From an uncultured delta proteobacterium (lineage in GTDB: Bacteria > Desulfobacterota > Binatia > UBA9968): a DNA stretch of 64,000 bases. The notes beneath the pieces were generated by a model. That model made no database searches, was not told the DNA's origin, and was given only the letters and a program-made list of their open reading frames with translations. Location of the stretch: contig CAVUZH010000025.1 of the NCBI GenBank assembly GCA_963745835.1, forward strand, positions 143,070 through 207,069. Direction: 5' to 3'. This document shows, in pieces, positions 1-62,029 of the stretch (position 1 is the stretch's first letter; every line of letters begins with the position of its first letter). The translations under genes were made by a program, and so were the position numbers.

Positions 1-771
1 CCGGAGATTTTGATTGTGGATGAGGTGCTTGCCGTAGGGGATGCCTCTTTTCAAAACAAATGCATAGGTAAAATGGGAGCCGTCGCCAAAGAAGGTCGAA
101 CCGTTCTTTTTGTCAGTCATAATGTCGCTGCGGTCAAGTCGCTTTGTAGTCGAGCCATTTTGCTGGATCGCGGGCAGGTGGATTGCGACGGGCGGGTCGA
201 TGACGTCGTGGATCGTTACGTCATGGCCAACAGCAACGTGCTCAAGAGCGGGGCTATACCGGACGATGTGGAGCGGATCGGTACGGGTGAAGCGAAACTA
301 CGTTCCGTGCAACTCGCTAACATATCCTGTAATCCGGTTTCAGAACTGTACTTTGGTCAGCCGTTCCGCGTCACGCTCGGGTTTGACGTCCTCACAAACA
401 TCCGGGATGTTTTTGTAGAAGTGAATATTGGCAAGCCCGATGGAACTGAGGTAGTTTTTTCTACCACGGTCGACGAAGGACAGCGACCGATGGATTTAAC
501 GACCGGACGCTATCAGGTGAATGCAGAATTCGACATCGTGCTCCTGCCCGGGCGGTATTCGATCGGTTTAGGTATTCACTTTATCGACGGTATGACCATC
601 GATTTTATTCGACGTGTTATGGATTTTCGAATTTTAAAAGTAGCGCAGAATGGGCACGGCGACTACCTCTGGGACACTGTTCGGGGCTATGTGCGTGGTC
701 TTCCCCGCTGGGGAATGCATAAAATGGCGGGTTCAGAAGCTGCGCAAGCGATTAAGTTCCATCTCGCTTAG
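1..771 (+). CDS. wzt: Polysaccharide ABC transporter ATP-binding protein with C-terminal Wzt_C carbohydrate-binding domain (5'-truncated by window edge)
   Basis: PEILIVDEVLAVGDASFQNKC (Walker B) and VLFVSHN (H-loop), followed by a beta-rich C-terminal domain. Confidence 0.9.
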   Translation, partial: PEILIVDEVLAVGDASFQNKCIGKMGAVAKEGRTVLFVSHNVAAVKSLCSRAILLDRGQVDCDGRVDDVVDRYVMANSNVLKSGAIPDDVERIGTGEAKLRSVQLANISCNPVSELYFGQPFRVTLGFDVLTNIRDVFVEVNIGKPDGTEVVFSTTVDEGQRPMDLTTGRYQVNAEFDIVLLPGRYSIGLGIHFIDGMTIDFIRRVMDFRILKVAQNGHGDYLWDTVRGYVRGLPRWGMHKMAGSEAAQAIKFHLA

Positions 772-16779: not shown

Positions 16780-18160
16780 TTGACCAGCACTTTCAAAAGT
16801 AAGACTATGCTCGTGGTAAGCCGATGTCAGTACCTGAGCTTTTTCGTAAGAAACACTACAACCGCTTCATCGAATCTCGACAGAGCTAATGTGGGCGAGG
16901 AGATGTACCGGTTTGTTACTGACCTGTTTCCGATTTGCCGAAGTATCACCGGTAAAGGCGCGCGTGAAACACTGGCGCTGATCCAAAAGCATGCGCCCCT
17001 GGACATTCACGAGATTCCCAGCGGAACCCGGGTTTTCGATTGGATCGTTCCCAAAGAATGGAATATCCGAGAGGCTTGGATTAAAGATCCGGCAGGGAAA
17101 AAAATCGTCGATTTCGGAAATTCTAACCTTCACGTGTTGAATTACAGCGCGCCGGTTCACGCCAGGTTATCGCTTAAGAATCTCAAAGAACATCTTTACT
17201 CGTTGCCGGAGCACCCTGATTGGATCCCGTATCGAACCTCTTACTACAACAACAACTGGGGGTTTTGCCTGTCCCACAATCAGCTCCTAGGCCTTTCGGA
17301 GGGTGAATACGAGGTATTTGTCGATTCCTCGCTCGAAGATGGGCATCTGACATTTGGAGAGTGTTATCTCCGGGGAGAAACGGAAGCCGAGGTCCTGATA
17401 TCGACGCATATCTGCCACCCGTCGCTGGCCAACGACAACCTTTCGGGCATCGCTGGTAGCAACTTTTCTAGCAAAATATTTGAGCAAGCTTTCATCGAGA
17501 TATTCTTACCGATTTCTTTTTATCCCGGGAACCATTGGCTCGATCACCTGGCTCAGCTTAAACGAATCTCAGCTGTCCCGAATCAAACACGGGCTGGTAC
17601 TGACATGTGTCGGGGACAGGGGAAAGTTTACGTATAAGAAAAGCAGGCAGCGGAATGCTGAGATCGATCGAGCGGTGTCCGAGGTTCTCAAAAAATCGGG
17701 TGAGGCTTTCGAAGTCCATGAATTTTCGCCTTACGGCTATGATGAAAGGCAATACTGTTCACCAGGGTTCAATCTTCCCGTCGGTTGCTTTATGAGAAGC
17801 CCCCACGCGCAATATTCGGAGTACCACACTTCTGCGGACAATTTGGATTTGGTTCGGCCAGAATATCTGGCCGATTCATTTTCGAAGTGCTTAGCCGTCT
17901 TTGAGGTTCTGGAGCACAACCGCGTCTATTGCAATCAGAATCCGAAATGCGAGCCGCAATTGGGGAGGAGAGGCATCTATAGTCAAATAGGCGGCCGGAC
18001 GGATGGTAAGACCCTGGAGTTGGCGTTGCTGTGGGTTTTGAATTTATCCGACGGAGAAAACAGTCTTCTAGACATTGCAGAAAAATCCAATCTAAATTTT
18101 TCTAGTGTCAGCAATGCAGCTCAAACGCTGCTAAAGACGGGCTTATTGCAGGAGGCGTAG
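16780..18160 (+). CDS. DUF4910-like peptidase-fold polysaccharide biosynthesis protein, frameshifted near 17455
   Basis: PICRSITG, IPYRTSYY, HICHPSLANDNLSG, then second frame GYDERQYCSPG, EYHTSAD, CEPQLGRRG; removing one G rejoins the frames. Confidence 0.85.
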
Positions 18161-23853: not shown

Positions 23854-23947
23854 ACGAGGCCAACGATTACTCGTTCGATTTGTTAAGACCGACTCTCGTC
23901 GCCGTCAAGCTTAGGTTACGGTGCGAGTATCGAGAAGGACTCTTAAA

Positions 23948-25954
<2,007 letters not shown>

Positions 25955-26189: not shown

Positions 26190-28115
26190 ATGTTGAAAGA
26201 AATCACCCTGAAATATCGGCGGATTCCGATTGTCGCTTTCCATATGGCTTTGATCGTTGTGGCCAATTACCTGGCCTTCTGGATCCGATTCGACGGCGCG
26301 ATTCCGGCTCACGAAAAGGAAATCATGCTGCGGATGATTCCCTGGTTGATGTTGATCCGCGGCCTGACCTTCGTGCCATTTCAGCTCTACAAAGGCTTAT
26401 GGCGCTATACGGGAATCTGGGACCTCCGCAATGTTATCGCCGGGGTGCTCGTGAGCACCGCATTGTTCTACATCACTGTTCATTGGATATTCACGGCCAA
26501 AAACTATCCTCTCTCGATCTTTATCATTGACTCTCTTCTGCTCATTTTTCTTATGGGCGGCAGCCGTTTGACCCGCCGTCTGGTTTACGGCATCGGCCAG
26601 GCAAAGGAAGGCCGGCGGCTGTTGATCTATGGCGCCGGAGACGCCGGAGAAATGATAGTTCGGGATATAAGGAACAATTCTTCTTTTTACGGTTACCAGC
26701 CCATCGGCTTTGTCGATGACGATTCGAAAAAGATCGGCCGCAGAATTCATGGTGTTCAGGTCTTCGGCAGGAGAGAAGATCTACCCCGGATTATCACAGA
26801 GGAAAAGCCCGACGAGCTTGTGATCGCCATCCCATCGGCCAAGCCGGTGATGGTTCGTGAAGTGGTCAAGATCCTCGAGCCGTTCAAGATTCCGATCAGG
26901 ACCCTTCCGCGAATTAGCGAACTGCGAAACGGCAACGTCGGCGTTAAGCAGATGCGCGACCTAGCCATTGAGGATTTGCTTGATCGAGCCCCGGTTGGTT
27001 TGGATCTCGAACCGGTGCGGACGTTAGTTAAGGGGAAGCGGATACTCGTCACAGGCGCGGGCGGCTCGATCGGTTCCGAGCTGAGCCGGCAGATTGCACG
27101 ATATCAACCGGCGCAGTTGGTTCTTCTAGACAATGGAGAAAGCGCTCTCTACGATATCAACACTGAGCTCGACCGCTCAGTGCAGCGCGTCGAGCGTGTG
27201 GCGGTCCTTGCCGATATCAGAGATGCACGAGCCATCGAAGAAATTTTTGCATCCCATGCTCCGCAAATTGTCTTTCACGCAGCAGCGTACAAACATGTGC
27301 CGATGATGGAAACCCATCCCAACGAAGCAGTCCTCAATAATGTGGTTGCAACCAATCGGCTGATGCGGTTTGCCATTCAATATCAAGTCGAAAGGTTCGT
27401 GCAGATTTCCACCGACAAGGCGGTCAATCCAACCAACGTGATGGGAGCTACTAAACGGGTCGCCGAAATGTGCATACAGGCTTTGGCAAAGAGCGAACAA
27501 AGCCAAACGATTTTCACCGCCGTTCGCTTTGGTAATGTGTTGGGCAGCAACGGCAGTGTGGTGCCCTTGTTTCTAAAGCAAATCGAACAAGGCGGGCCCG
27601 TAACCGTCACCGACCCCGAGATCAGCCGCTATTTCATGACGATCCCCGAAGCAGTATTGCTGGTGCTGCAAGCGGCGACACTAGCTAAAGGCGGCGACAT
27701 CTTCGTCCTGGAAATGGGTGAGCAGATCAAACTCATGGACATGGCGCGCCATCTCATTCGGCTGGCCGGCTTCGTTCCGGAAGAGGACATCCCAATTCAC
27801 CTCGTCGGTCTTCGACCCGGCGAAAAACTCCGTGAAGAGTTGGTCGGCATGGACGAGATGCTGATCCCTGCAGAGGTTCAAAAAATATTTCGGGTGCAAT
27901 CTGCGTGGCTTGCGGATCTGCGGTTTCTCACAGCCAAAATTGACGAAATGGAAGAGATGGCACTTAAAGGCCAGTCCCGGCGAGCTTTAGCATTGCTGTA
28001 CGAGACCGTACCGACTTTCCGGCCGGTGGATCCCAAGACTGCAAAGCAAATCCGTCATCAAGGAACAAACAAAGAACCGACCCGCGCTTGGAAATTCGCT
28101 AGCCGCTCGGCGTGA
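26190..28115 (+). CDS. Membrane-anchored UDP-GlcNAc 4,6-dehydratase (PglF/WbpM/CapD family)
   Basis: 4 [51 protein letters not shown]. Confidence 0.94.
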
Positions 28116-28309
28116 TTGATTGAAGCAATCATCACGGAATCGGAGCGCGCGCAGCGGATCACGAAAAGTGATGACGACCAGATCATTAGAATCGTTGTTC
28201 TTGCATCTCGCTGCCTGCTGAGAGATGAAAAGAGCAACAAGCTGGAACAGCGTGTCGTAGTGGCACCGCCGTGCCTCTCAATCGGGCGAAGTGATCATCG
28301 TAGGTTCTG

Positions 28310-28645
28310 ATGCCACGGCCAATAACCAGCTCAAAGCTCAGGGGGTTGCGTATGAAACGGCGGACGGGCGTTCAGAGCAGGCTGGTGGAAGGCGAAATGA
28401 TCGTTCTGGATAGAGAGCACGACTTGATCCATCAATTCAATAAAACTGCGACTTTCATTTGGGAACATTGCGATGGGCAACGGTCGGCCGCCGATATTGC
28501 GAATGCGGTTTGTGAAAGTTTTGAAGTCGATGAAGCCACGGCTACCAAGGAGGTCATTGAAACTCTCGAGAGGTTGCAAAATTTAGAGCTCATTGGAGAT
28601 GATCAGACAAACGACAAACCAGAAAGGAGAATTAATTATGTCTGA
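28310..28645 (+). CDS. Stand-alone PqqD-family RiPP recognition element (RRE)
   Basis: EGEMIVLD..IHQFNKTATFIWE.CDG..S..DIA..CESFEV...A..EV...LE.L...LI; alternative start ATG 28352. Confidence 0.88.
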   Translation: MPRPITSSKLRGLRMKRRTGVQSRLVEGEMIVLDREHDLIHQFNKTATFIWEHCDGQRSAADIANAVCESFEVDEATATKEVIETLERLQNLELIGDDQTNDKPERRINYV

Positions 28646-28823
28646 GGTTAAAATAAAGCGTAGAGAGTTCGTCAAAAGAGCGGCCTATGCGGCGCCGGTG
28701 ATCTTGACTCTTAAGGCTATGCCGGCATTTGCTGCTTCCGGTTCCGGCAGTCCCCGGAGCTCCAAAGGAGACCCTTCCGAGAAAAAGGCGACGAAAGCCC
28801 CAGCCAAGAATGAAGTTCAATAA
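28638..28823 (+). CDS. 61-aa putative RiPP-like precursor or secreted peptide
   Basis: Strong RBS AAAGGAG; overlaps the PqqD stop; KRREFVK, YAAPVILTL, AFA then Ser-rich SGSGSPRSS. Confidence 0.75.
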   Translation: MSEVKIKRREFVKRAAYAAPVILTLKAMPAFAASGSGSPRSSKGDPSEKKATKAPAKNEVQ

Positions 28824-28878
28824 AGAAGGCGCGCAAATGTGACGCTAGTTCCTCGCACCCTCGGCGCTCTATGATCCC

Positions 28879-29748
28879 GTGAACGATTGCCAGAAGCTAG
28901 TTTTCCGGATAGTAGGCTGCGTTGTGGAAATCGATTGCCGAGATCGGCCAGCCGCCGAGCTGATACGCGCCAACTATGCCGCCATGCAATCCCACCAGGG
29001 TGCCAAACCAGATCTCGAGTATGAGGTCTGGCGGCGCAATGGTTCACAATTTTGCGTAGCTCGGCAGGGGCGCGAGCCGATAACCGCGGCTGATGAAGGT
29101 GAGCTTCTTTTTATATTGGAAAAGGAGCTCACCATCGAACTACAAAAAATCCGCCGAGAACTGTATTTCCTTCACGCCGCCGCATTGAGCCTAGCAGGCC
29201 GGGGCTTGTTGATCGTGGCAGCCTCCGGTACCGGAAAATCGACGACTGCCTGGGCGCTGTTACATCACGGGTTCGATTACTTGAGTGACGAGCTAGCTCC
29301 CGTGGCTTTGGATTCTGTGCAGGTACAACCTTATCCACATGCGCTCTGCTTAAAAAGGGAGCCGCCGCTGCCGTACTCGCTGCCGGTGCGAAGCGTGCGC
29401 ACCTCATCAACTCTGCACGTGCCCGTCACGCAAATGCCGAATTCCGCTGTTTCGCAAACGATGCCGTTGAGTGCAATGTTCTTTCTTGAGTACTGCCCGG
29501 AATTGGAGATCCCGACCGCCCGTACGATCACTAAAGCTGAAGCGGCAGCGCGGTTGTTTGTGAATGCATTGAATCCCCTGGCTCATGAGCAAGACGGGCT
29601 CGCTGGTGCCGCAATCATAGCTCAGAGCGTTCCAGCTTTTCACCTTAAATCGGCAGAACTTGGTCTGACTTGTGAACTAGTGAAAGCGATTCTATCTGAA
29701 CTAGATGTTAACACACGCACGAATCCGTCCGATAATCACCGCTGTTAG
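28879..29748 (+). CDS. HPr-kinase-like serine kinase
   Basis: LHAAA, Walker A AASGTGKSTT, YLSDE. Confidence 0.85.
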   Translation: MNDCQKLVFRIVGCVVEIDCRDRPAAELIRANYAAMQSHQGAKPDLEYEVWRRNGSQFCVARQGREPITAADEGELLFILEKELTIELQKIRRELYFLHAAALSLAGRGLLIVAASGTGKSTTAWALLHHGFDYLSDELAPVALDSVQVQPYPHALCLKREPPLPYSLPVRSVRTSSTLHVPVTQMPNSAVSQTMPLSAMFFLEYCPELEIPTARTITKAEAAARLFVNALNPLAHEQDGLAGAAIIAQSVPAFHLKSAELGLTCELVKAILSELDVNTRTNPSDNHRC

Positions 29749-29779
29749 CATCGTCGGCTCTGGTTGATAGTCTCAGTTC

Positions 29780-30865
29780 ATGTCCAGCCGTCATCCGCAA
29801 CTGATCTTGCTCCTCGAGGCAATCTCGAGCAACCGGGAAGATCTGGCGCTCGATGAGTTCGACGCCATCACGGTTGCTTGGGCGATCCGAAACGGCCTCG
29901 GACCGTTGTTGTATCGCGCCGTGCGCCGAAACTCTCAAAGCTTGGCGAATTCTCACTGGAGTTCGCTCAAGGCGGCGGATCTGACCGCCCGGATTGTTAT
30001 TGGAGAACATTTTCAAGCGTTGCAAGAAATTGGCGATGCGTGCCGATCAAGTCTTCCTCCCTTGACGTTGCTGAAGGGCATTTCAATCAGTGAACAATGT
30101 TATCCCGAGCCGCATCTGCGGCTCATGCGCGACATAGATTTTTTGGCTGCAAAAGAATCACTGCCGGCTGTCACTGCTGCGCTGCATCAACTTGGCTATC
30201 GGCAGCTGTCAAATGGCGGAGTACGGTATGATAAGCATCATCACCTTGAACCATTTTTTCATCAAGACAAGCAGGTGTGGGTCGAGGTTCACCACGGCTT
30301 GTTCTCGGCCCAGCGCCGAGCCGGCAGCGCCAAGGTCTTTGGTCGGGAGAATCTCGCGGCGCAATCACGACCCTCTCGATTTCAAGGCATGGAGGTCCGC
30401 CGCTTGAGTCTAGAGCTGCAACTGGTTTACTTAGCCTCTCACTGGGCACAAGACTTCATCAGGATTGGCGGCGTGGTGGCACTCGCCGACACAATTTACT
30501 TGTTGAAGCACGCCGGGACCGACTTCCAATGGGAGTGGATCCTGAGAGCCGTCAATCGCTCAATTCCGGCAACGTATCTCTACCTGTTGCTCAGTTATAT
30601 GGTCCGTTATGATCTGGTCAAAGTTGCTCCAGAGGTCATGCGTGAGCTGGCATTCAGCCAGCCATCGTTCGGCAGCCTAGGCCTTAAGACGATGCATCGC
30701 ATGATCGATGACTATATCGTGAAAGCAACAGAGTTCGGGCCATTGTTGAGCGAACGGTCGGTAGGCATCATCTGGAAAACCTTGATGCTGCCTGGGCCAA
30801 CTCTGCCGAAGCTCGTATTGATTCCGCTAAATATTTCACTGCCTCAATATTGCCGCATTCAATAA
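29780..30865 (+). CDS. Uncharacterised nucleotidyltransferase (NTP_transf_5-like)
   Basis: LLKG, YPEPHLRLMRDIDFL (DxD), VEVHH. Confidence 0.85.
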   Translation: MSSRHPQLILLLEAISSNREDLALDEFDAITVAWAIRNGLGPLLYRAVRRNSQSLANSHWSSLKAADLTARIVIGEHFQALQEIGDACRSSLPPLTLLKGISISEQCYPEPHLRLMRDIDFLAAKESLPAVTAALHQLGYRQLSNGGVRYDKHHHLEPFFHQDKQVWVEVHHGLFSAQRRAGSAKVFGRENLAAQSRPSRFQGMEVRRLSLELQLVYLASHWAQDFIRIGGVVALADTIYLLKHAGTDFQWEWILRAVNRSIPATYLYLLLSYMVRYDLVKVAPEVMRELAFSQPSFGSLGLKTMHRMIDDYIVKATEFGPLLSERSVGIIWKTLMLPGPTLPKLVLIPLNISLPQYCRIQ

Positions 30866-30909
30866 TTTCTCAATTATTTAAAAAATCGTGTCGAAGGGGG
30901 AGAAGTTCT

Positions 30910-32274
30910 ATGAATTATGATGCAGAGGCTGCGATATCTTCCAAGGAGCAGCCAATCACTCATCGATCACAAATGGGCCGGGAGCTCAAGAAGAAGATTC
31001 GCGATCGTTCTGCTAAAGTGGGTGTCGTCGGTCTTGGATATGTCGGATTGCCTTTGGCTTTGGAGATGGCGCGGGCCGGGTTCGAAGTGACCGGTATCGA
31101 TCTCGTTAGGGATAGAGTCGATTCGATTAATTCCGGTATCTCCTATATTCCTGATGTGACTGGCGAAGCTTTGCTCTCGGCTGTTTCGGCCAACAGGCTG
31201 CGAGCAACTCAGTCGCTTTCGGCGGCGGAGAAAGTCGATACTCTAAATATTTGTGTGCCCACCCCGTTGCGCAAGAACAAGGATCCGGATCTTTCCTACG
31301 TCATCGCCGCAGTCGAGGCGATCCGGACTCACATACGGCCCGGCCAACTGATTATACTCGAGAGTACGACTTATCCGGGTACAACTCGGGAGGTGGTGTT
31401 GCCGATCCTCGAAGAATCGGGTCTCAACGTCGGGCGTGACTTTTTTCTCGCTTATTCTCCTGAACGGGTCGATCCCGGCAATCAGAATTATACTACCCGT
31501 AACATTCCCAAAGTAGTCGGCGGCGTGACTCCGAGATGCGCCGAGATAGCGGTTCTGCTTTATGAGCAATTCGTGGAGAAGGCGTTGCCGGTATCCTCCA
31601 CCGATTGCGCTGAAATGGTAAAGCTGTTGGAAAACACCTTTCGAAGCGTGAATATCGCTCTGGCCAATGAAATGGCTTTGACGTGCCATTCGCTGGGCAT
31701 CGATGTTTGGGAAGTTATCGAAGCGGCCAAGACCAAACCTTTCGGGTTCATGCCGTTTTACCCGGGCCCAGGATTAGGTGGCCATTGCATTCCGGTGGAT
31801 CCCTATTATTTGACATGGCGAGCCAAGATGAACGGCTGCGAGCCACGGCTGATTGAGTTGGCCGGACACATCAACAGCCAGATGCCGGGATTCACTGTAT
31901 TAAGCATCGCCGATGCGTTGAATGAGAGGCGTAAGTGTTTGCGAGGCGCCAAGATTCTCGGCTTGGGAGTCACCTACAAGCGTGATACCAACGATGTCCG
32001 GGAATCACCGGCCGTTCATGTGCTTGAAGCGCTGCGTAAAAAGGGCGCTTCGATCTGTTATTCTGATCCGCACGTGTCGTCAATATCGATTGCTGGTCAA
32101 ACGATCAACTCGGTAGAACTGACCGCTGAACTCCTGCAGTCAATGGACTGTGTTGCTGTTCTCACCGATCATTCCTCTTTCGATTACTCGCTGATTGCGC
32201 AACACAGTTCACTCATTTTCGACACCCGGAACGCGCTTAAAGACTTCCCTAGCGCTAACTCAGTTCTCTTGTAG
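30910..32274 (+). CDS. UDP-N-acetylhexosamine 6-dehydrogenase (WbpA/WecC-like)
   Basis: GLGYVGLP, CVPTP, ESTTYPG, SPER, KLLEN, GGHCIPVDP, D.RESP. Confidence 0.93.
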   Translation: MNYDAEAAISSKEQPITHRSQMGRELKKKIRDRSAKVGVVGLGYVGLPLALEMARAGFEVTGIDLVRDRVDSINSGISYIPDVTGEALLSAVSANRLRATQSLSAAEKVDTLNICVPTPLRKNKDPDLSYVIAAVEAIRTHIRPGQLIILESTTYPGTTREVVLPILEESGLNVGRDFFLAYSPERVDPGNQNYTTRNIPKVVGGVTPRCAEIAVLLYEQFVEKALPVSSTDCAEMVKLLENTFRSVNIALANEMALTCHSLGIDVWEVIEAAKTKPFGFMPFYPGPGLGGHCIPVDPYYLTWRAKMNGCEPRLIELAGHINSQMPGFTVLSIADALNERRKCLRGAKILGLGVTYKRDTNDVRESPAVHVLEALRKKGASICYSDPHVSSISIAGQTINSVELTAELLQSMDCVAVLTDHSSFDYSLIAQHSSLIFDTRNALKDFPSANSVLL

Positions 32275-36390: not shown

Positions 36391-37251
36391 ATGACAGAAC
36401 AGCAGTCGAAAGTGGCTCAACTTCTAAGAAAAAATGAACGAGATGTTTTACAGCAGTGGTTGTCGTACCAGATCTCCGCGACAACGATGCGAGCCGATTT
36501 GATCAAAGAGAGCGATTTGCGCGAGGAATCGCGGCGGTTTCTGCAACTCTTTAACGAGGTCGTGCAACAGAACGGGGATGACGAAAATGCCGGCTCCTGG
36601 AAATCGGTCAAAGACATGCTCCGCGAAGTATCGCGCAGCCGCGTTGTCCAAGGTTTCAGTCCGTCTGAAACCGCCACGTTCATTTTTTCGCTCAAGCAGC
36701 CGATCTTCGATATGTTGCGGCGCGAGATACGCGATGTTGACGAACTGTGCCGCGAGATCTGGGCGGCCACGGCTCTGCTCGACAAGCTCGGACTGTACAC
36801 CACGGAAGCCTACCTGCAGAGCCGCGAGTCAATCATCTCGCGCCAGCAGCAAGAATTGATGGAGCTATCCACTCCTGTGGTCCAGCTCTGGGACAATGTC
36901 CTCGCACTGCCACTAATCGGTACACTCGACAGCGAACGCACTCAAGTGGTGATGGAGAACTTGCTCGAGAAAGTAGTCGAGACCGGCGCAAAGATAGCGA
37001 TCATCGATATCACCGGCGTTCCCACTGTGGACACACTGGTTGCGCAACATCTACTCAAGACAGTCGCCGCCGCCCGGCTCATGGGAGCCGATTGCATCAT
37101 CAGCGGCATTCGTCCGCAGATCGCTCAGACCATCGTTCACCTGGGCATCAACCTGGCCGATATCATCACTAAAGCGACCTTAGCCGATGCATTCGCCATT
37201 GCCCTGCAGCGGACCGGAGCCAAGGTGACGCGCCTGAGCGGCAAAGAGTGA
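36391..37251 (+). CDS. rsbR: Stressosome sensor RsbR (RsbRD_N + STAS)
   Basis: QGFSPSETATF, ELSTPV, GTLDSER, PTVDTLVAQHL. Confidence 0.93.
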   Translation: MTEQQSKVAQLLRKNERDVLQQWLSYQISATTMRADLIKESDLREESRRFLQLFNEVVQQNGDDENAGSWKSVKDMLREVSRSRVVQGFSPSETATFIFSLKQPIFDMLRREIRDVDELCREIWAATALLDKLGLYTTEAYLQSRESIISRQQQELMELSTPVVQLWDNVLALPLIGTLDSERTQVVMENLLEKVVETGAKIAIIDITGVPTVDTLVAQHLLKTVAAARLMGADCIISGIRPQIAQTIVHLGINLADIITKATLADAFAIALQRTGAKVTRLSGKE

Positions 37252-37259
37252 GGTAATTG

Positions 37260-37649
37260 ATGGAACGGATTCCAATCCTGAAAATGGGCCGCTTTCTACT
37301 CGTGACTATTCAGGTGGACATGCACGATCGCTTGGCAATGACGCTTCAAGAGGACTTGACCGATCGTATCGTCAAAGACCACGCGCACGGGGTGTTGCTC
37401 GATATTTCCTCCTTGGAAATCGTCGACTCCTTTATCGGCCGCATGATCGGTCACATTGCCGGCGTCTCTCGCGTGCTCGATGCCAAAACCGTGGTGGTGG
37501 GAATGAGACCTGCCGTCGCCATCACGCTGGTAGAATTGGGCATGACCCTCGATGGAGTGAGCACCGCGCTGAATGTCGATACCGGTATGGCGATGTTGAA
37601 CGCCTCGCTGGAAGAGAGGGAACAACTTAATGGTGGTTCTCAAGGATGA
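37260..37649 (+). CDS. rsbS: Stressosome antagonist RsbS (STAS)
   Basis: IPILK, IVDSFIGR (phospho-Ser), GMRPAVAITLVELG. Confidence 0.93.
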   Translation: MERIPILKMGRFLLVTIQVDMHDRLAMTLQEDLTDRIVKDHAHGVLLDISSLEIVDSFIGRMIGHIAGVSRVLDAKTVVVGMRPAVAITLVELGMTLDGVSTALNVDTGMAMLNASLEEREQLNGGSQG

Positions 37650-38040
37650 GACTGCTTCAATCCGGAGTTCTGACGACATCGTCAAGGTACGCCGGATTGT
37701 CCGAGAGTGGGCGGTATCGCTGGGGTTCAGCTTAGTGGATCAGACCAAGGTCGTTACGGCAGCCAGTGAGTTGGCGCGTAATGTCATCGATTACGGTGGC
37801 GGTGGCGACTTTCGGATCGAGGCGCTCAACAATCATGCCCGGCGCGGACTGCGGCTGACGTTTTCTGATGAAGGACCGGGTATTGTTGATCTGGAACAGG
37901 CAATGAAGGACGGGTTTACCACCGGTGGAGGGTTGGGTCTCGGGCTCGGCGGCGCCAAGCGGTTGGTAAACGAATTCCTAATCGATTCGAAACCAGGGCG
38001 AGGCACTACCGTGGTGATTGTCCGCTGGAAGAATCTATGA
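37630..38040 (+). CDS. rsbT: Stressosome Ser/Thr kinase RsbT
   Basis: TAASELARN, DEGPGI, DGFTTGGGLGLGL.GAKRL. Confidence 0.93.
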   Translation: MVVLKDETASIRSSDDIVKVRRIVREWAVSLGFSLVDQTKVVTAASELARNVIDYGGGGDFRIEALNNHARRGLRLTFSDEGPGIVDLEQAMKDGFTTGGGLGLGLGGAKRLVNEFLIDSKPGRGTTVVIVRWKNL

Positions 38041-39065
38041 TCCCTGTTTGGGAAAGGCAGAAGACTTTTGAAATAAGTGAGCCAAGCCACGTCGCCGAGG
38101 CGCGGCGCTTTACCAAGAGGATGGCCGAAGACGCGGGCTTCAACGAATCTCAAGCCGGCGGCGTCGCGCTCGTCACCACGGAATTGGCAACCAACCTGCT
38201 GAAGCACGCCAGCAGCGGTGAGATCGTCGTCCGACCCATCGTTGAGCGGGGCATCGCGGGGGTGGAACTACTAGCTCTCGACAAAGGCTCGGGAATCGCG
38301 AATGTTGCTGAATCTTTCCGTGATGGCTATTCGACTGCTGGGACTGCGGGCACGGGTCTTGGTGCCATCGCCCGGGTGGCTGCCGAATTCGACGTTCAAA
38401 CGCAGCCAGGGAAGGGTACCGCCGTGATGGCCCGGCTCTGGGGTGGCAAGATTGGCGAGGCGTCTGAAAATCACATTGCGATTGGCGCGATTTGTAAGCC
38501 GATGCCCGGCGAGACGCGTTGCGGTGATGGATGGGGCTGCGAGCTCCTCGCAGATCGGTGCATTTTGGTGCTGGTCGACGGCTTGGGCCACGGAACGGGT
38601 GCTGCGGCCGCAGCCGAACTGGCCGTTGCCAGCGTGCGCCAGCACCGCGCCAAAGCTCCGGCGGCAATCGTTCAATACGCTCACGACGCGCTACGCGCCA
38701 CGCGCGGCGCGGCTCTCGCCGTGGCTGAGGTCGATTTGGCTCAGCAATCGCTGCGTTTTTGCGGCATAGGAAACATTTCCGCCACTATCATTTCTGGAGA
38801 CAGCCTGCGCCATCTAGTTTCTTACAACGGCACTGCTGGTCACGAAGCGCGCAAGATTGTCGAGTTCACCTATCCATGGAGTGCAAACGCGCTGTTGATC
38901 ATGCACTCTGACGGACTGATGACGCGCTGGAATCTGCAGGCCTATCCTGGGTTGCTTCAGCGTCATCCAAGCCTTATCGCCGGTGTCCTTTATCGGGATT
39001 TTGGCCGCGGCCGCGATGACGTCACTGTACTAACCGCCAAATGCCCTAGCGTGAGTACTGAGTAG
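38037..39065 (+). CDS. HATPase + SpoIIE/PP2C phosphatase (RsbX-like)
   Basis: ELATNLLKH, DKGSG, GTGLG; CGDG, DGLGHG, HSDGL, RDDVT. Confidence 0.88.
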   Translation: MIPVWERQKTFEISEPSHVAEARRFTKRMAEDAGFNESQAGGVALVTTELATNLLKHASSGEIVVRPIVERGIAGVELLALDKGSGIANVAESFRDGYSTAGTAGTGLGAIARVAAEFDVQTQPGKGTAVMARLWGGKIGEASENHIAIGAICKPMPGETRCGDGWGCELLADRCILVLVDGLGHGTGAAAAAELAVASVRQHRAKAPAAIVQYAHDALRATRGAALAVAEVDLAQQSLRFCGIGNISATIISGDSLRHLVSYNGTAGHEARKIVEFTYPWSANALLIMHSDGLMTRWNLQAYPGLLQRHPSLIAGVLYRDFGRGRDDVTVLTAKCPSVSTE

Positions 39066-39201
39066 AAATCAGCCATAAGCTGGACAATGATTCAGCCGCG
39101 ATCCGGCCGATAAATGTTCGAACACAGAGATCGTTTTACTTGAGGTCTTGTTTAGGAGTTGTGCTGAGAGCCGCATCAGAACGACAAACCAGGACCGCCC
39201 T

Positions 39202-41436
39202 ATGAGTTATTCGATCACCCACCTTAGCATCGAATACGAGCACGATGTTGTCTTAGTGCGCCAACGGGCGCGCGAGATCGCCGCATTGCTCGGCTTCGAT
39301 AATCAAGATCAGACGCGCGTTGCCACGGCAGTCTCCGAGCTGGCGCGCAACACTTTTGTTTATGCCGGCCGTGGCAGGGTGGATTTCGAGATTGAAGGGC
39401 GGACCGTGCCGCAGCTTTTCGTTATCCGGATTGGCGACAACGGTCCCGGTATCGCAAATCTTCAGGAAATTCTGGAAGGGCGTTATGTGTCGCGCACCGG
39501 AATGGGGATTGGGCTGATTGGGGTCCGGCGGCTGGTCGATCAATGCGAGATCCACAGTGATCCCAAAGAAGGAACCAAGATCGCTCTCCGAAAAATTATG
39601 CCGCGTCATGCGCCGCTGGTCACAACCGCGTCTCTGCGCAGTTTGGTCGATCACTTGTCCCAGCGGCAACCGCAGGGTCCGATGGAGGAAGTCCAACAGC
39701 AAAATCGGGAGCTGGTGCGCGCTTTAGCAGATTTGCGCGAGCGGCAAGATGAGTTGGCGCGGATCAATCGGGAACTTGAAGACACAAACCGCGGCGTGGT
39801 GGCGCTTTATGCCGAGTTAGATGAAAAGGCCAGTCACTTGCGTCGCGCCGACGAAATGAAGTCACGCTTTCTTTCCAACATGAGTCACGAATTTCGCACG
39901 CCGCTCAATTCGATCTTGGCATTATCGGGATTGTTGCTGGAGCGCGCCGACGGGGAACTAACCAGCGAACAAGACAAACAAGTCGACTTCATCCGAAAGG
40001 GCGCGGAGACTCTGCTGGAGTTGGTAAACGATCTATTGGATTTGGCAAAAATCGAGGCCGGCAAGGTCGAGGTCCAGCCGGTCGACTTCGAAGTGTCCAA
40101 TCTTTTCAGCGCGCTCCGCGGCATGCTGCGTCCGCTCCTGGTGACTCAGAGCGTTGGCCTGGTTTTCGAAGATCCCGGGGAGATTCCTTGTTTATACACC
40201 GACGAAGGCAAGCTGTCGCAAATCTTGCGCAATTTTATTTCAAATGCGCTGAAGTTCACGGAACAGGGTTTGATCTCGGTTGCAGCAACTTTCAATAAAA
40301 CGGATCAGACGGTGACATTTGCGGTCTCGGATACCGGCATGGGTATCCCGGCTGAGGACCAGTCGAAGATTTTTGAGGAATTTATCCAACTCGAAAATCC
40401 GGCACAACGAAAAATCAAGGGCACGGGTCTCGGGCTTCCCCTATGCTGCAAATTGGCTACACTGCTGAATGGAAAAATCGATCTGGTGAGTCAGATAGGG
40501 ATCGGTTCAACGTTTTCAGTGACAATTCCGCTTTATCATTCGCAGGTGCTTGAGAGCCAGACAGTTGGCGAAGCGAAACCGGCGGCTTTATGGGAAATCG
40601 ATGAAACACGCATTCCCGTTTTGGTTCTGGAGGACGCTCCAGAGACTCGCCTCCTCTATGAAAAGTTTCTTCGTCAATCTGCGTTTCAACAGATCTCGGC
40701 GAATAACCTGGGTGAGGCCCGCCGAATACTACAGCAGGTTCGGCCGCGCGCCATCATTATGGATATTCTTCTACGCGGTGAAGACTCGTGGAGCTGGTTG
40801 GCCGAGCTCAAGGCGGAGAGCGCGACGCGGGACATCCCGGTGCTGGTTATCACCAGTGTCGACGACGAACGCAAGGGCCTATCCCTAGGCGCCGATGCGT
40901 ACTGCCTGAAGCCGATCGGGCGCGAAACCTTGATCGGGCACCTTCATGCTCTTACTGCTGCAAGTGCTGAAATCCCGGGAGCAGAACAAGCGCTCCAACA
41001 CGGAAATGAGCAGCCCTGTATCTTGATCATCGACGACGAACCGGTGGACCGCTACATACTCGTGCGCCTTCTCGAGCAACAGCCATGCATCGTTGAGCAG
41101 GCGGCAAGCGGGTTGGAAGGTCTAAAAATCTTGCAAGAAATCAAACCGGATCTTATTTTTCTGGATCTCAACATGCCAGGTCTCTCAGGCTACGATGTTT
41201 TGAATCACATCAAGGCCCATCCGGCTACGCGCAATATTCCGGTGGCGGTGGTGACATCGGCCGAGCTTGACGGGCATCAGCGTCAAGAACTCAAAAAAAA
41301 GGCCTTTGCGCTAATAAATAAGGTTGACCTCTCAGCCAAAGCCGTTGATGATTTGCTTGCGGCAGCGATGGCGCAGGCGGCCCTGCAGGCACGATTGGGC
41401 GAGATGCACAATTCCGAGGCTAGCGGCAACGGCTGA
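39202..41436 (+). CDS. Hybrid histidine kinase with N-terminal RsbT-like domain and two receiver domains
   Basis: TAVSELARN..DNGPG; ELEDTNRGVVALY coil; MSHEFRTPL, NALKFT, DTGMG, GTGLGL; two REC domains. Confidence 0.92.
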   Translation: MSYSITHLSIEYEHDVVLVRQRAREIAALLGFDNQDQTRVATAVSELARNTFVYAGRGRVDFEIEGRTVPQLFVIRIGDNGPGIANLQEILEGRYVSRTGMGIGLIGVRRLVDQCEIHSDPKEGTKIALRKIMPRHAPLVTTASLRSLVDHLSQRQPQGPMEEVQQQNRELVRALADLRERQDELARINRELEDTNRGVVALYAELDEKASHLRRADEMKSRFLSNMSHEFRTPLNSILALSGLLLERADGELTSEQDKQVDFIRKGAETLLELVNDLLDLAKIEAGKVEVQPVDFEVSNLFSALRGMLRPLLVTQSVGLVFEDPGEIPCLYTDEGKLSQILRNFISNALKFTEQGLISVAATFNKTDQTVTFAVSDTGMGIPAEDQSKIFEEFIQLENPAQRKIKGTGLGLPLCCKLATLLNGKIDLVSQIGIGSTFSVTIPLYHSQVLESQTVGEAKPAALWEIDETRIPVLVLEDAPETRLLYEKFLRQSAFQQISANNLGEARRILQQVRPRAIIMDILLRGEDSWSWLAELKAESATRDIPVLVITSVDDERKGLSLGADAYCLKPIGRETLIGHLHALTAASAEIPGAEQALQHGNEQPCILIIDDEPVDRYILVRLLEQQPCIVEQAASGLEGLKILQEIKPDLIFLDLNMPGLSGYDVLNHIKAHPATRNIPVAVVTSAELDGHQRQELKKKAFALINKVDLSAKAVDDLLAAAMAQAALQARLGEMHNSEASGNG

Positions 41437-61977: not shown

Positions 61978-61996
61978 CATGGAATCCAGTCTTGTG

Positions 61997-62029
61997 AAGC
62001 AGCTGATGCGCGAACCGCTGCTGCATTTC
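61997..62029 (+). pseudogene. Stub of the PpiC-type peptidylprolyl isomerase gene that usually follows DUF3604
   Basis: GTG AAG CAG CTG ATG CGC GAA CCG CTG CTG CAT = [11 protein letters not shown], cut off by the start of copy 2. Confidence 0.5.

Follow-up and report, generated by a model that had tools for sequence, protein, structure and literature searches.

RiPP pathways are thought to require a leader peptidase and a pump of their own. The window (the whole 64,000-nt stretch of DNA that was analysed) contains a gene for a small peptide whose leader resembles both a twin-arginine (Tat) signal and a docking motif for a RiPP recognition element (RRE). This raises the question whether a single leader can be read twice, and whether Tat export and signal peptidase could take the place of a dedicated protease and exporter, as had been suggested in a preliminary description of this DNA.

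The peptide gene and its cassette

The features of the locus are listed in Table 1. The peptide ORF was found to run from an ATG at position 28638 to a stop codon at 28821–28823 and to overlap by 8 nt with the upstream PqqD ORF, for which a possible alternative start is present at 28352. The translation was identical to the 61-aa peptide quoted in the preliminary description, and the motifs pointed out there, RREFVK, YAAPVI and AFA, correspond to residues 8–13, 17–22 and 30–32, respectively. The 29-aa remainder after AFA, which had been described as Ser/Lys-rich, contains six Ser and five Lys.

Table 1. Features of the peptide locus and its flanks, in positions of the window
Feature	Position	Strand	Basis
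Polysacc_synt_2, membrane nucleotide-sugar 4,6-dehydratase type; flanking, outside the cassette	26190..28115	+	PF02719, E 2.9e-116
PqqD-family RiPP recognition element (RRE), 111 aa	28310..28645	+	Pfam PF05402, E 3.6e-16
Shine-Dalgarno AAGGAG	28624..28629	+	8 nt 5′ of the peptide ATG, read directly
Precursor peptide gene, 61 aa + stop	28638..28823	+	direct reading of sequence and translation
Twin-arginine motif R8-R9-E-F-V-K13 (n-region)	28659..28676	+	conservation in listed representatives
Putative RRE docking motif Y17-A-A-P20-V-I-L23, [Y/W]xxPx[IV]L, inside h-region A15-L25	28686..28706	+	conservation
A30-F31-A32, signal-peptidase-I type A-x-A site, predicted cleavage after A32	28725..28733	+	conservation and LPP register
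Predicted 29-aa hydrophilic core/tail A33-Q61, hypervariable in the family	28734..28820	+	alignments A1, A2
G35-S36, Gly-Ser at +3/+4 of the predicted core	28740..28745	+	invariant in alignment A2
HprK-like P-loop kinase, 289 aa	28879..29748	+	NCBIfam TIGR04352 HprK_rel_A, E 1.2e-16
PF14907 (NTP_transf_5) nucleotidyltransferase-fold enzyme, 361 aa	29780..30865	+	Pfam E 1.4e-33
Nucleotide-sugar dehydrogenase; flanking, context	30850..32274	+	NCBIfam TIGR03026, E 1.1e-134

A homology search with the peptide gave 70 homologues of 33–107 aa at E ≤ 0.01, and the family was shown to comprise 1178 cluster representatives (50% identity clusters) at E ≤ 1e-3 and 328 at E ≤ 1e-10. The motif counts given below refer to 150 listed representatives of the 1178, with some columns scored on 149; all 150 were 41–130 aa long. 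In a cross-phylum alignment of 22 sequences (A2), residues R8, R9, F11, K13, A16, Y17, P20, L23, L25, P29, A32, G35 and S36 were invariant. Conservation of RR, YxxP and AxA together with the following xxGS had been named as a check on the preliminary description, and all of these were kept in homologues from several phyla. Besides, contigs from four metatranscriptome runs, belonging to four studies, bridge the PqqD, peptide and kinase genes. That the peptide gene is real and conserved beyond chance is confirmed.

The peptide matched no Pfam or NCBIfam family at E ≤ 0.01, and at E ≤ 10 only chance-level matches to these databases were found, e.g., YqhI-like in nine of 22 family members; when PDB sequences were searched with the profile of the peptide, there was no match at E ≤ 10. 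When the genome was searched with the profile for paralogues, nothing came up beyond the gene itself and a chance-level match on contig C13 (E 0.65). Three of 401 sampled genomes of the host's phylum, host included, had a family match, which is too few to test co-occurrence with TatC. Scanning of positions 27900–31000 for promoters and terminators showed nothing above shuffled expectation, and no terminator was found there 3′ of the peptide gene.

Peptide loci were found in MAGs labelled Binatia, Acidiferrales, Vicinamibacterales, Bacteroidota, Planctomycetales, Syntrophobacteraceae and Verrucomicrobia. Where the flanks were long enough, the PqqD gene was located 5′ of the peptide gene (38 of 45 loci) and the HprK-like kinase gene 3′ of it (25 of 33 loci); a PF14907 homologue was detected in 21 of the 52 peptide loci, many of these being too short for its presence to be judged. 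One locus contained PqqD fused to the nucleotidyltransferase. Concerning the flanks, a Polysacc_synt_2 homologue was present in 11 of the 52 loci (phmmer) and was confirmed with Pfam 5′ of the cassette in L003, L006, L008 and L010, a nucleotide-sugar dehydrogenase gene was likewise found 3′ of the cassette in L003, L009, L015, L018, L020 and L028, and the neighbourhood in other relatives included an exosortase-associated DUF3485 gene or one for Poly_export. At the far end of the window (10–771) a Wzt_C domain was observed.

Neither a PqqD nor a kinase homologue was detected in ten of the 52 peptide loci, six of which (L037, L044, L048, L054, L029, and L030) can be judged on at least one side. 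L029 and L037 contain a LuxR-type response-regulator gene 3′ of the peptide gene, and L024, also among the ten, has a weak nucleotidyltransferase match. In such loci, either the cassette is located elsewhere in the genome or the leader works without it. A second PqqD, HprK-like and NTP_transf_5 locus was observed on contig C3 of the host, with no RR...YxxP ORF in the region 904–942 kb.

The dedicated protease and exporter had been reported as missing. None of the 51 ORFs in the window matched an S24/S26 peptidase, an Asn_synthase-type cyclase, a Transglut_core3 protease or an ABC exporter, and the same four gene types were absent from 36 ORFs of eight loci and 45 flanking ORFs of 14 loci, except for an ABC_tran ATPase in L023; ABC_membrane gave no match in the window or in these 22 related loci. 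Apart from the single ABC_tran match, the earlier statement was borne out in the window and in the 22 related loci.

Putative RRE docking and relation to LPP and lasso systems

Among solved structures, the best relatives of the PqqD protein were the lasso B1 proteins TfuB1 (6jx3_B, E 8.2e-7) and TbiB1 (5v1u_A, E 2.5e-6), and the 2026 PqqD-family entries 9x8z_B (E 0.0074) and 9x90_B (E 0.0026) were no closer than these. The best NCBIfam matches were lasso PqqD chaperones, all under their cut-offs. RRE docking in lasso systems and in systems for linear polyphosphorylated peptides (LPP) follows the pattern [Y/W]xxPx[LVIFA] (PMC13381572). In the peptide family, [Y/W]xxP was found in all 150 listed representatives (YxxP in 149 and WxxP in one), with I/V at Y+5 in 148 of 149 and Leu at Y+6 in 135 of 149. 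A predicted complex of the RRE (residues 13–100) with the leader (residues 1–40) reached a score of 0.54, compared to 0.01 for the best of three controls; the runs shared at least 98% of contacts, and the partner pLDDT was at least 58. For such predictions, 116 of 157 solved complexes attain the mark, as do two of 215 mismatched pairs; at scores of 0.60 or below, only 18 of the 157 solved complexes attain it, together with both mismatches. Since RRE-leader complexes have already been solved, the pass may moreover reflect structures known to the predictor. The modelled complex supports docking weakly.

The closest described system is that of the LPPs of Bacillota, encoded by lppA-K-B-S-D-N in Paenibacillus alginolyticus (Popov et al., Nat Commun 2026, PMC13381572). 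The LPP precursor carries the motif YxxPxVL...FET|xxS, in which the SpI-type peptidase LppS, assisted by the RRE, cleaves 16 residues after Tyr; LppS depends on the RRE and is active in an assay with cell-free translation, and the polyphosphorylated Ser is core residue 3, i.e., Y+18 (PMC13381572). In both systems, a linear precursor is encoded together with a lasso-type RRE that is a discrete protein, a kinase of the HprK-like type and an NTP transferase that is uncharacterised, and there is no cyclase. In both, the N-terminus of the precursor is conserved and the C-terminus hypervariable, the leader contains YxxPx[VI]L, and the clusters are embedded in polysaccharide loci. The AFA site is in the cleavage register of LppS (Tyr at −16), with a conserved Ser just past the site. 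By this analogy, the predicted release of the core through signal-peptidase-type cleavage gains support from outside the family.

The two systems also differ. LPP clusters contain their own SipW-type peptidase (LppS) and MsbA-type pump (LppD), whereas neither gene was found here. LPPs are described as restricted to Bacillota in the main text of the LPP paper (PMC13381572), the supplements of which may list non-Bacillota relatives, whereas the hosts in this study belong to diderm soil phyla. The conserved Ser is at +3 in LPP but at +4 here. In addition to its AxA site, the leader described here has the complete RRxF[VIL]K block. A term search in the main text of PMC13381572 found none of the terms 'twin-arginine', 'Tat', 'signal peptide' and 'Gram-negative'.

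Gly-Ser was present at Y+18/Y+19 in 147 of the 150 listed representatives. The tails of the family (9–98 aa) are small, hydrophilic and of low complexity; their residues include 18.6% G, 11.4% S, 8.4% each of K and R, 7.7% P and 7.1% N. By analogy with LPP, Ser36 is a candidate phosphorylation site. The C-terminal residue was Ser in only seven of the 150 listed representatives, and since this is the residue used by lasso-type kinases, the phosphorylation target is a guess.

For phosphorylated and phosphoglycosylated lasso peptides (paeninodin and pseudomycoidin), an HPr-kinase homologue was reported to phosphorylate the linear precursor on a Ser, a nucleotidyltransferase to add a hexose to the phosphate, and a PqqD-type B1 protein to recognise the YxxP leader (PMC8498205). 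The cassette shares the HPr-kinase homologue, the nucleotidyltransferase, the PqqD-type protein and the YxxP leader with these systems, whereas their cyclase, B2 protease, ABC exporter and C-terminal Ser as kinase target (PMC8498205) do not apply here. A lasso-peptide precursor with its cyclase and protease encoded elsewhere would agree with the YxxP motif, with an RRE that among solved structures is nearest to lasso B1 proteins, and with the finding that other contigs of the genome contain Asn_synthase homologues as well as a single, borderline match to Transglut_core3. This explanation is nevertheless scarcely credible. Lasso precursors follow a rule of Thr at leader position −2 and Asp/Glu at core positions 7–9, whereas 147 of 149 listed representatives have Ala at the position equivalent to this Thr and only 58 of 150 have an acidic residue at core positions 7–9. 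Furthermore, the window and the 22 related loci yielded neither a cyclase nor a B2 protease, and the only Transglut_core3 match of the genome is on contig C16, where Asn_synthase was not found. The preliminary description had called the motif in the leader lasso-type YxxPxL; the conserved YxxP stands, but the LPP type fits better (YxxPx[IV]L, Ala at the lasso Thr(−2) position, and no cyclase).

Within NCBIfam, the HPr-rel-A system provided the best or near-best matches, i.e., TIGR04352 for the kinase (HprK-related kinase A) and TIGR04353 for the RRE (PqqD family peptide chaperone). However, with 60.7 bits against a cut-off of 200 for TIGR04352 and 20.8 bits against 35 for TIGR04353, the scores were far under the curated cut-offs, and the cassette thus forms a separate branch. 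The kinase also matched Pfam Hpr_kinase_C (E 6.3e-5), under the gathering score. The term 'HprK-related kinase' gave nothing in the full-text literature searched.

If the peptide were an ordinary small secreted peptide beside the cassette, the RRE, kinase and transferase would act on another target. The ten peptide loci where PqqD and kinase genes were undetected nearby, and the lack of a C-terminal Ser of the kind used by lasso-type kinases, would agree with this. On the other hand, the gene is located between the PqqD and kinase genes, with the 8-nt PqqD overlap and a position kept across phyla, and the motif by which the peptide would dock to the RRE is in the register seen in LPP; moreover, an RRE without a peptide partner would stay unexplained. 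We therefore find a bystander role very improbable.

Twin-arginine block and A-x-A site of the leader

The Tat consensus is S/T-R-R-x-F-L-K, combined with an AxA cleavage rule (PMC13673990). The n-region of the window peptide, K-R-R-E-F-V-K, agrees with the motif S/T-R-R-x-hydrophobic-hydrophobic(-K). All 150 listed representatives contained [RK]R (RR in 131, KR in 19, and RK in none), and among the 149 scored for the other positions of the block, F was present at +3 in 128, V/I/L at +4 in 141, K at +5 in 135, and S/T at −1 of the motif in 117. Judged by its residues, the twin-arginine motif is canonical, and its variation resembles that of real Tat motifs.

The h-region of the window peptide (A15–L25, AAYAAPVILTL) consists of 11 uncharged residues and is directly followed by K26, so that the caveat raised earlier about a short h-region with a Lys was justified. 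An uncharged stretch of 11 residues was found in 82 of the 150 listed representatives and one of at least 13 residues in 68; position 26 was K in 74 and R in five of 149, and mostly uncharged otherwise. For comparison, h-stretches of 12–24 residues are present in the nine Tat signals of this genome that are convincing, and 11 motif carriers of this genome with at least 120 aa downstream have a median h-stretch of 15. At the end of the leader, A/S-x-A was present in 141 of the 150 listed representatives (AxA in 89 and SxA in 52), with Ala at −1 in 147 of 149, A/S at −3 in 142 of 149, and Pro at +1 in none of 150.

The leader was missed by curated profile models for Tat signals. Pfam TAT_signal (PF10518) matched none of 22 family members even at E ≤ 10, and TIGR01409 matched three of the 22, with a best E of 0.11 and no match reaching the cut-off. 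A tblastn search with the peptide also brought up four genuine Tat-lipoprotein signals of solute-binding proteins, and in the ESM Atlas, six of the seven nearest named clusters among the matches listed were Tat-signal classes, which at scores of 0.82–0.85 are leads only. The host assembly, with an estimated contamination of 9.3%, contained two TatC matches above the cut-off. As cargo, small unfolded Tat substrates without exposed hydrophobic stretches are tolerated (PMC13673990).

The h and c regions of the leader were much more conserved than those of ordinary signal peptides, and most of that conservation must serve a role other than export. On one rival view, the leader would serve the RRE and the enzymes alone and resemble a Tat signal without Tat transport, the product remaining intracellular or leaving through an unlinked transporter, and its leader being removed by an unlinked protease. 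The extreme conservation of the entire 32-residue leader is what enzyme recognition would predict, the Tat profile models failed, and the h-stretch is short, with Lys26 within the hydrophobic part. Cleavage at the AFA register does not by itself need export either, because the SpI-type peptidase of LPP, which needs the RRE, cleaves in cell-free translation (PMC13381572). We nevertheless consider a leader without any Tat function unlikely. RRE docking leaves unexplained why the S/T-R-R-x-F-[LIV]-K block is located at a fixed spacing of 9 residues upstream of YxxP in 143 of 149 listed representatives, and why KR variants are found but never RK; in addition, the A/S-x-A site never has Pro at +1, and no dedicated peptidase or pump was found in the 22 loci and the window.

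Alternatively, the leader could act as an uncleaved signal-anchor that tethers the peptide to the inner membrane while its modified tail projects into the periplasm, e.g., as a primer, anchor or regulator for the polysaccharide of the surrounding locus. The cassette is located within glycan loci both in the window and in many relatives, flanked by Polysacc_synt_2 and nucleotide-sugar dehydrogenase genes or, in other relatives, near a DUF3485 or Poly_export gene, which would suit such a role, and the invariant Gly-Ser just past the hydrophobic part would be well placed for a glycan link. The nearest named Atlas cluster among those listed was the Rieske Tat-signal class, which is uncleaved; at a score of 0.85, it is no more than a lead. 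Against this, the prevalence of Ala at −1 and A/S at −3 and the lack of Pro at +1 have the look of selection by signal peptidase, and an h-region of 11 residues would probably be too short for a stable transmembrane anchor, which makes tethering quite improbable.

A leader that is bound before it is exported is known from REMPs, such as those for Ni-Fe and molybdenum enzymes: a twin-arginine leader is bound in the cytoplasm by a dedicated small protein, genetically linked to it, during finishing of the cargo, and export and AxA cleavage take place afterwards (PMC13673990), steps that are predicted for the peptide here. In contrast to the cassette RRE, REMPs have a fold unrelated to that of PqqD, and their task is the insertion of cofactors into folded enzymes, whereas the cargo here would be a disordered peptide of ~29 residues and its finishing would consist of phosphorylation or decoration. 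In the literature searched, outside which lie ~1.7 million PubMed Central articles and most subscription papers, nothing relevant on a natural RiPP with a Tat leader was found.

Proposed pathway and significance

The cassette is best explained as a Gram-negative, lasso-free, LPP-like variant, located in the surface-glycan locus of a soil bacterium. That it is an LPP-like linear phosphopeptide cassette (RRE, peptide, HprK-like kinase, and PF14907 enzyme), with a leader read by the RRE and then by Tat and signal peptidase I, is in our view somewhat probable. The interpretation of the leader as both Tat signal and RRE site in the preliminary description is thus partly supported, and only partly, because Tat export and cleavage after AFA, like RRE binding and the phosphorylation site, are what we infer, because the Tat models stayed below threshold, and because the complex prediction is weak.

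According to this model, the PqqD-type RRE would bind Y17-xx-P20-x-I-L23 in the cytoplasm and present the peptide to the kinase, which would most likely phosphorylate Ser36, possibly several times, and the nucleotidyltransferase may attach a further group to the phosphate. Once released, the leader would serve as a class I Tat signal, with K-R-R-E-F-V-K as n-region, AAYAAPVILTL as h-region, and a c-region comprising Lys26 and A-F-A. Housekeeping signal peptidase I would then cut after Ala32 to give a modified hydrophilic peptide of 29 residues outside the cytoplasm. Tat and LepB would in this way replace the dedicated SipW-type peptidase and MsbA-type pump of the LPP clusters of Bacillota.

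More tentatively, the family could form a large, cross-phylum class of linear phospho(glyco)peptides whose 32-residue leader is decoded twice, with the lasso-type RRE acting as a Tat proofreading chaperone that keeps the signal in the cytoplasm until Ser36 is phosphorylated and decorated, and the leader then passing to TatBC and housekeeping signal peptidase I. We regard this as possible, though with less than even confidence; it would be the first natural RiPP class exported in pre-modified form via the general Tat pathway, and its product may be tied to the surrounding surface glycan.

If the double reading is true, an RRE docking site is written into a general export signal, which would show how a modification cassette can manage with only three enzymes and leave the remaining steps to Tat and signal peptidase I. 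For the Tat field, this would add a natural cargo that is tiny, disordered and pre-modified and that has a dedicated signal-binding protein. The peptide family, which is large and has no existing name, is found in exopolysaccharide/O-antigen-type loci of abundant soil phyla, and LPP clusters were also found beside capsule genes by their discoverers (PMC13381572). The size and location of the family could thus bear on the biological role of LPP-type peptides. The family may represent a widespread kind of modified peptide, possibly using the general export and signal-cleavage machinery.

A search for longer proteins carrying the leader found nine, none of which had it fused to a folded exported domain, an arrangement that would have pointed directly to a function as signal peptide. 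These proteins were N-terminal mis-calls, had long repeat tails, or appeared to be peptide-kinase fusions (P0279 and P0282). The two fusions were taken for frameshift artefacts, since each was represented by a single member; if real, they would be incompatible with export. As a separate observation, the leader was found attached to a different, non-GS tail in P0147 (117 aa).

Precursor gene, cassette and synteny

The translated precursor ORF was shown to match the peptide of the preliminary description letter for letter, and the motifs were found at the residues assigned there (RREFVK at 8–13, YAAPVI at 17–22 and AFA at 30–32), with 29 residues after AFA. In the window sequence, AAGGAG is located 8 nt ahead of the ATG, and the ORF shares 8 nt with the stop end of an upstream 111-codon ORF encoding a PqqD-family protein, a RiPP recognition element (RRE). 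The closest NCBIfam models for this ORF were lasso-peptide PqqD chaperones, every one under its cut-off, and the closest solved relatives were the lasso B1 proteins TfuB1 and TbiB1. The downstream kinase scored 60.7 bits against a TIGR04352 cut-off of 200. All four cassette genes are on one strand, with genes for a Polysacc_synt_2 dehydratase and a nucleotide-sugar dehydrogenase on either side; a sugar-nucleotide/glycan locus occupies the window's first 32 kb, and a Wzt_C domain is found at the far end. Among 51 scanned window ORFs, no Asn-synthase-type cyclase, Transglut_core3 protease, S24/S26 peptidase or ABC exporter was detected.

Features of the precursor cassette and other elements of the window
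Feature	Position	Strand	Evidence or remark
PqqD-family protein	28310–28645	+	PF05402, E 3.6e-16
Precursor peptide ORF	28638–28823	+	ATG to stop
HprK-like P-loop kinase, downstream of peptide	28879–29748	+	TIGR04352, E 1.2e-16
PF14907 nucleotidyltransferase-fold protein, after kinase	29780–30865	+	Pfam E 1.4e-33
Wzt_C domain	10–771
Split genes	16780–18160; 23921–24773; 24996–25954; 60247–63998		Adjacent/overlapping ORFs
Stressosome-like module	36391–41436		RsbRD_N plus STAS, STAS, HATPase_c_2 kinase, HATPase_c_2 plus SpoIIE phosphatase

Split in this way are DUF4910 (two pieces), two copies of DUF3604 (two pieces each), an epimerase and a GDP-mannose dehydratase, which is suggestive of pseudogenes or of frameshifts introduced by assembly errors; unlike these, the peptide cassette is intact. 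Behind the stressosome-like module lie hybrid histidine kinases, including one of 1868 residues that has many PAS domains.

Synteny was determined for 11 genome loci and 45 metagenome loci, the six-frame ORFs of which were searched by phmmer with the window proteins. The family peptide was present in 52 of the 56 loci, a PqqD homologue in 38 of the 45 whose flank upstream of the peptide measures 350 nt or more, and a kinase homologue in 25 of the 33 with a downstream flank of 700 nt or more. A nucleotidyltransferase was found in 21/52 loci, downstream or divergently upstream, many loci being too short to judge. In locus L012 (6049–7704), a PqqD domain is fused to an NTP_transf_5 enzyme downstream of peptide and kinase, suggesting that the RRE also serves the transferase. 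The flanking ORFs of 22 loci (36 + 45 ORFs) contained no S24/S26 peptidase, Asn_synthase or Transglut_core3 match, and a single ABC_tran ATPase match (L023). Ten peptide loci had neither a PqqD nor a kinase homologue; in two of these (L029 and L037) a LuxR-type response-regulator gene is located downstream, and a third (L024) showed a weak nucleotidyltransferase match. A leader subfamily (MIKQSRREFVKKAAYIPPVILTL...) was seen at loci with no PqqD or kinase nearby (L029, L030, L037, L044, L048, and L054).

Leader conservation and tail variation

A word-indexed search retrieved 70 homologues of 33–107 aa. In an alignment of 52 of these with the window peptide (18 near-duplicates or alternative-start calls excluded), residues 6–36 were nearly invariant and the tail variable. 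When one genome of each species was scanned for the sequence pattern, 11 loci were obtained, in MAGs labeled Binatia, Acidiferrales, Vicinamibacterales, Bacteroidota, Planctomycetales, Syntrophobacteraceae, and Verrucomicrobia. Invariant columns of a 22-sequence cross-phylum alignment were R8, R9, F11, K13, A16, Y17, P20, L23, L25, P29, A32, G35, and S36. HMMER against 1.84 billion cluster representatives retrieved 1178 family members with E ≤ 1e-3, of which 328 reached E ≤ 1e-10; the statistics below rest on 150 of the 1178 (the matches listed; 41–130 aa). RR, YxxP and AxA, for which conservation across homologues had been put forward as a check of the dual reading, proved conserved in both the alignments and the 150 listed representatives.

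Leader conservation among the matches listed (Y+n, position relative to Tyr of YxxP, Y17 in the window peptide)
Feature	Count
Twin residues RR, KR, RK	131, 19, 0 of 150
S or T directly before twin residues	117/149
F at +3 of twin-arginine motif	128/149
V/I/L at +4 of twin-arginine motif	141/149
K at +5 of twin-arginine motif	135/149
RR-to-Tyr spacing exactly 9	143/149
YxxP; WxxP	149/150; 1/150
I/V at Y+5	148/149
L at Y+6	135/149
T/S at Y+7	149/149
P at Y+12	147/149
A/S-x-A ending at Y+15	141/150
Pro right after A/S-x-A	0/150
G-S at Y+18/Y+19	147/150

The tails, of 9–98 residues among the matches listed, are rich in G, S, K, R, P, N and D, poor in hydrophobics, and can be grouped into low-complexity types that recur. 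The tail type KGNNGVGNGxDPQPPGNPPxNDGPG, for example, follows the same leader in more than one phylum; a longer form continuing with TSPGNPGN, at times duplicated, occurs in L008, L009, L011, L012, P0153, P0163, P0191, P0193, P0212, and others, in MAGs labeled Binatia, Acidobacteriota, and Bacteroidota. Among the matches listed, 15 of the 150 representatives contain an NNGx[GST]N-type motif. Unlike the purely hydrophilic window tail, those of P0148, P0133, P0165, P0154, P0205, P0272, and L013 end in a short C-terminal stretch that is hydrophobic or amphipathic, or contain abundant His-Gly repeats.

The family is rare in the host's phylum (3/401 sampled genomes, host included), and the closest relatives are labeled Binatia. 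Estimated contamination of the assembly is 9.3%, which makes the assignment of the contig to its bin uncertain.

The leader as putative RRE ligand and Tat signal

Discrete RREs of lasso peptides and of the linear polyphosphorylated peptides (LPP) of Bacillota are described to bind [Y/W]xxPx[L/V/I/F/A] (Popov et al., 2026; PMC13381572). This motif type is invariant in the peptide family, and the neighboring gene encodes a lasso-type RRE. Complex prediction of RRE residues 13–100 with leader residues 1–40 scored 0.54 (best control 0.01), with at least 98% contact agreement between runs and a partner pLDDT of at least 58. The mark used was passed by 116/157 solved complexes and 2/215 mismatches; only 18 of the 157 solved complexes, yet both mismatches, lay at 0.60 or under. 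The prediction weakly supports docking, and since similar complexes are already solved, the pass may reflect memorised structures.

According to PMC13673990, the Tat consensus is S/T-R-R-x-F-L-K, cleavage follows an AxA rule, and small unfolded Tat substrates are tolerated if no hydrophobic stretch is exposed. The leader has the textbook motif, a hydrophobic stretch and then an AxA site; the twin-arginine pair varies only to KR and never to RK among the matches listed, the tail is small and hydrophilic, which counts for a Tat signal, and the host genome encodes TatC. The remaining four of the 56 loci (L055–L058) were N-termini of solute-binding lipoproteins, not family members, with TRREFVKR... 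signals and a terminal lipobox; their retrieval shows that tblastn ranks genuine Tat signals as relatives of the leader. Among the matches listed, six of the seven nearest named ESM-Atlas clusters were Tat-signal classes and one was a radical-SAM target peptide family, the Tat-class scores of 0.82–0.85 making these leads only. The JGI product name of two homologues, 'phosphodiesterase/alkaline phosphatase D-like', probably reflects the signal.

The h-region had been noted as short and Lys-containing, and an uncharged stretch of 11 residues before Lys26 was confirmed, likewise in 82/150 representatives among the matches listed; in 68/150 of these matches Y+9 is uncharged and the stretch at least 13 residues. 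In the same genome, a strict [ST]RRx[FL][LIVM]K motif followed by 120 aa or more has 11 carriers, with uncharged stretches of 0, 0, 9, 12, 15, 15, 15, 15, 16, 17, and 24. Lys26 may just as well count as a basic residue of the c-region. The dual Tat/RRE reading is supported in part. Counting against a Tat signal are the short uncharged stretch and the profile searches, in which Pfam TAT_signal matched 0/22 family members and TIGR01409 3/22 (best E 0.11). A natural RiPP carrying a Tat leader did not turn up in the literature searched.

LPP clusters are reported in capsule loci of Bacillota. Their precursors combine the motif YxxPxVLxHQxIxFETxxS with a C-terminus that varies; the clusters also encode an MsbA-like pump, an NTP transferase that showed no activity in the authors' host, and a signal peptidase I of the SipW type, which depends on the RRE to cleave after T(-1) (PMC13381572). 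The same source states LPP and paeninodins to be restricted to Bacillota, and its main text contains no mention of twin-arginine, Tat, signal peptide or Gram-negative. For the kinase and nucleotidyltransferase chemistry of paeninodin and pseudomycoidin, a lasso tailoring review is available (PMC8498205). Counted from the Tyr of the printed motif, LPP have Y at -16, L at -10 and T at -1; by hand alignment from this motif, Y17 of the window peptide places L23 at -10 and A32 at -1, so that AFA is in the exact LPP cleavage register, and the invariant Ser is at +4 (Ser36) versus +3 in LPP. Bacillota LPP have their own SpI-type peptidase and pump and lack the RR block, whereas the window peptide family has the RR block and AxA site and lacks genes for an SpI-type peptidase and a pump. 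This complementarity is the strongest argument for the earlier proposal that Tat export and signal peptidase could replace the missing protease and exporter. We read the locus as an LPP-like cassette of diderm phyla whose leader is of the Tat type; directly observed are its gene content and synteny and the conservation and register of the motifs.

By analogy, from which we infer all biochemical steps, the RRE would dock on YxxPxIL of the leader and the kinase would then phosphorylate Ser36, a phosphate that the transferase may extend; after release, the leader would engage TatBC, and signal peptidase I would cleave after Ala32.

Neighboring genes, a second locus and transcripts

In two related loci (L006:3514–4647 and L015:450–4087), the PqqD gene is immediately preceded by NRPS-type genes (Condensation, AMP-binding, PP-binding, Thioesterase). 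In L019 (3667–4251) an exosortase-associated DUF3485 (EpsI-type) gene adjoins the cassette, a hint of some connection to PEP-CTERM/exosortase loci. A second locus in the same assembly, outside the window (contig C3, ~905,000–941,000), contains a PqqD gene (912956), two HprK-like matches (926680, 927797), Asn_synthase homologues (916684, 923198) and three to four NTP_transf_5 matches (905905, 931540, 940370); neither a member of the peptide family nor any RR...YxxP ORF turned up in this region.

Metatranscriptome contigs (four runs from four studies; 90–99% alike) cover the peptide gene and span PqqD, peptide and kinase genes (e.g., 28285–28698, 28527–28980, and 28588–28980), with possible DNA carry-over. 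DNA matches to the locus come from soil and rhizosphere metagenomes.
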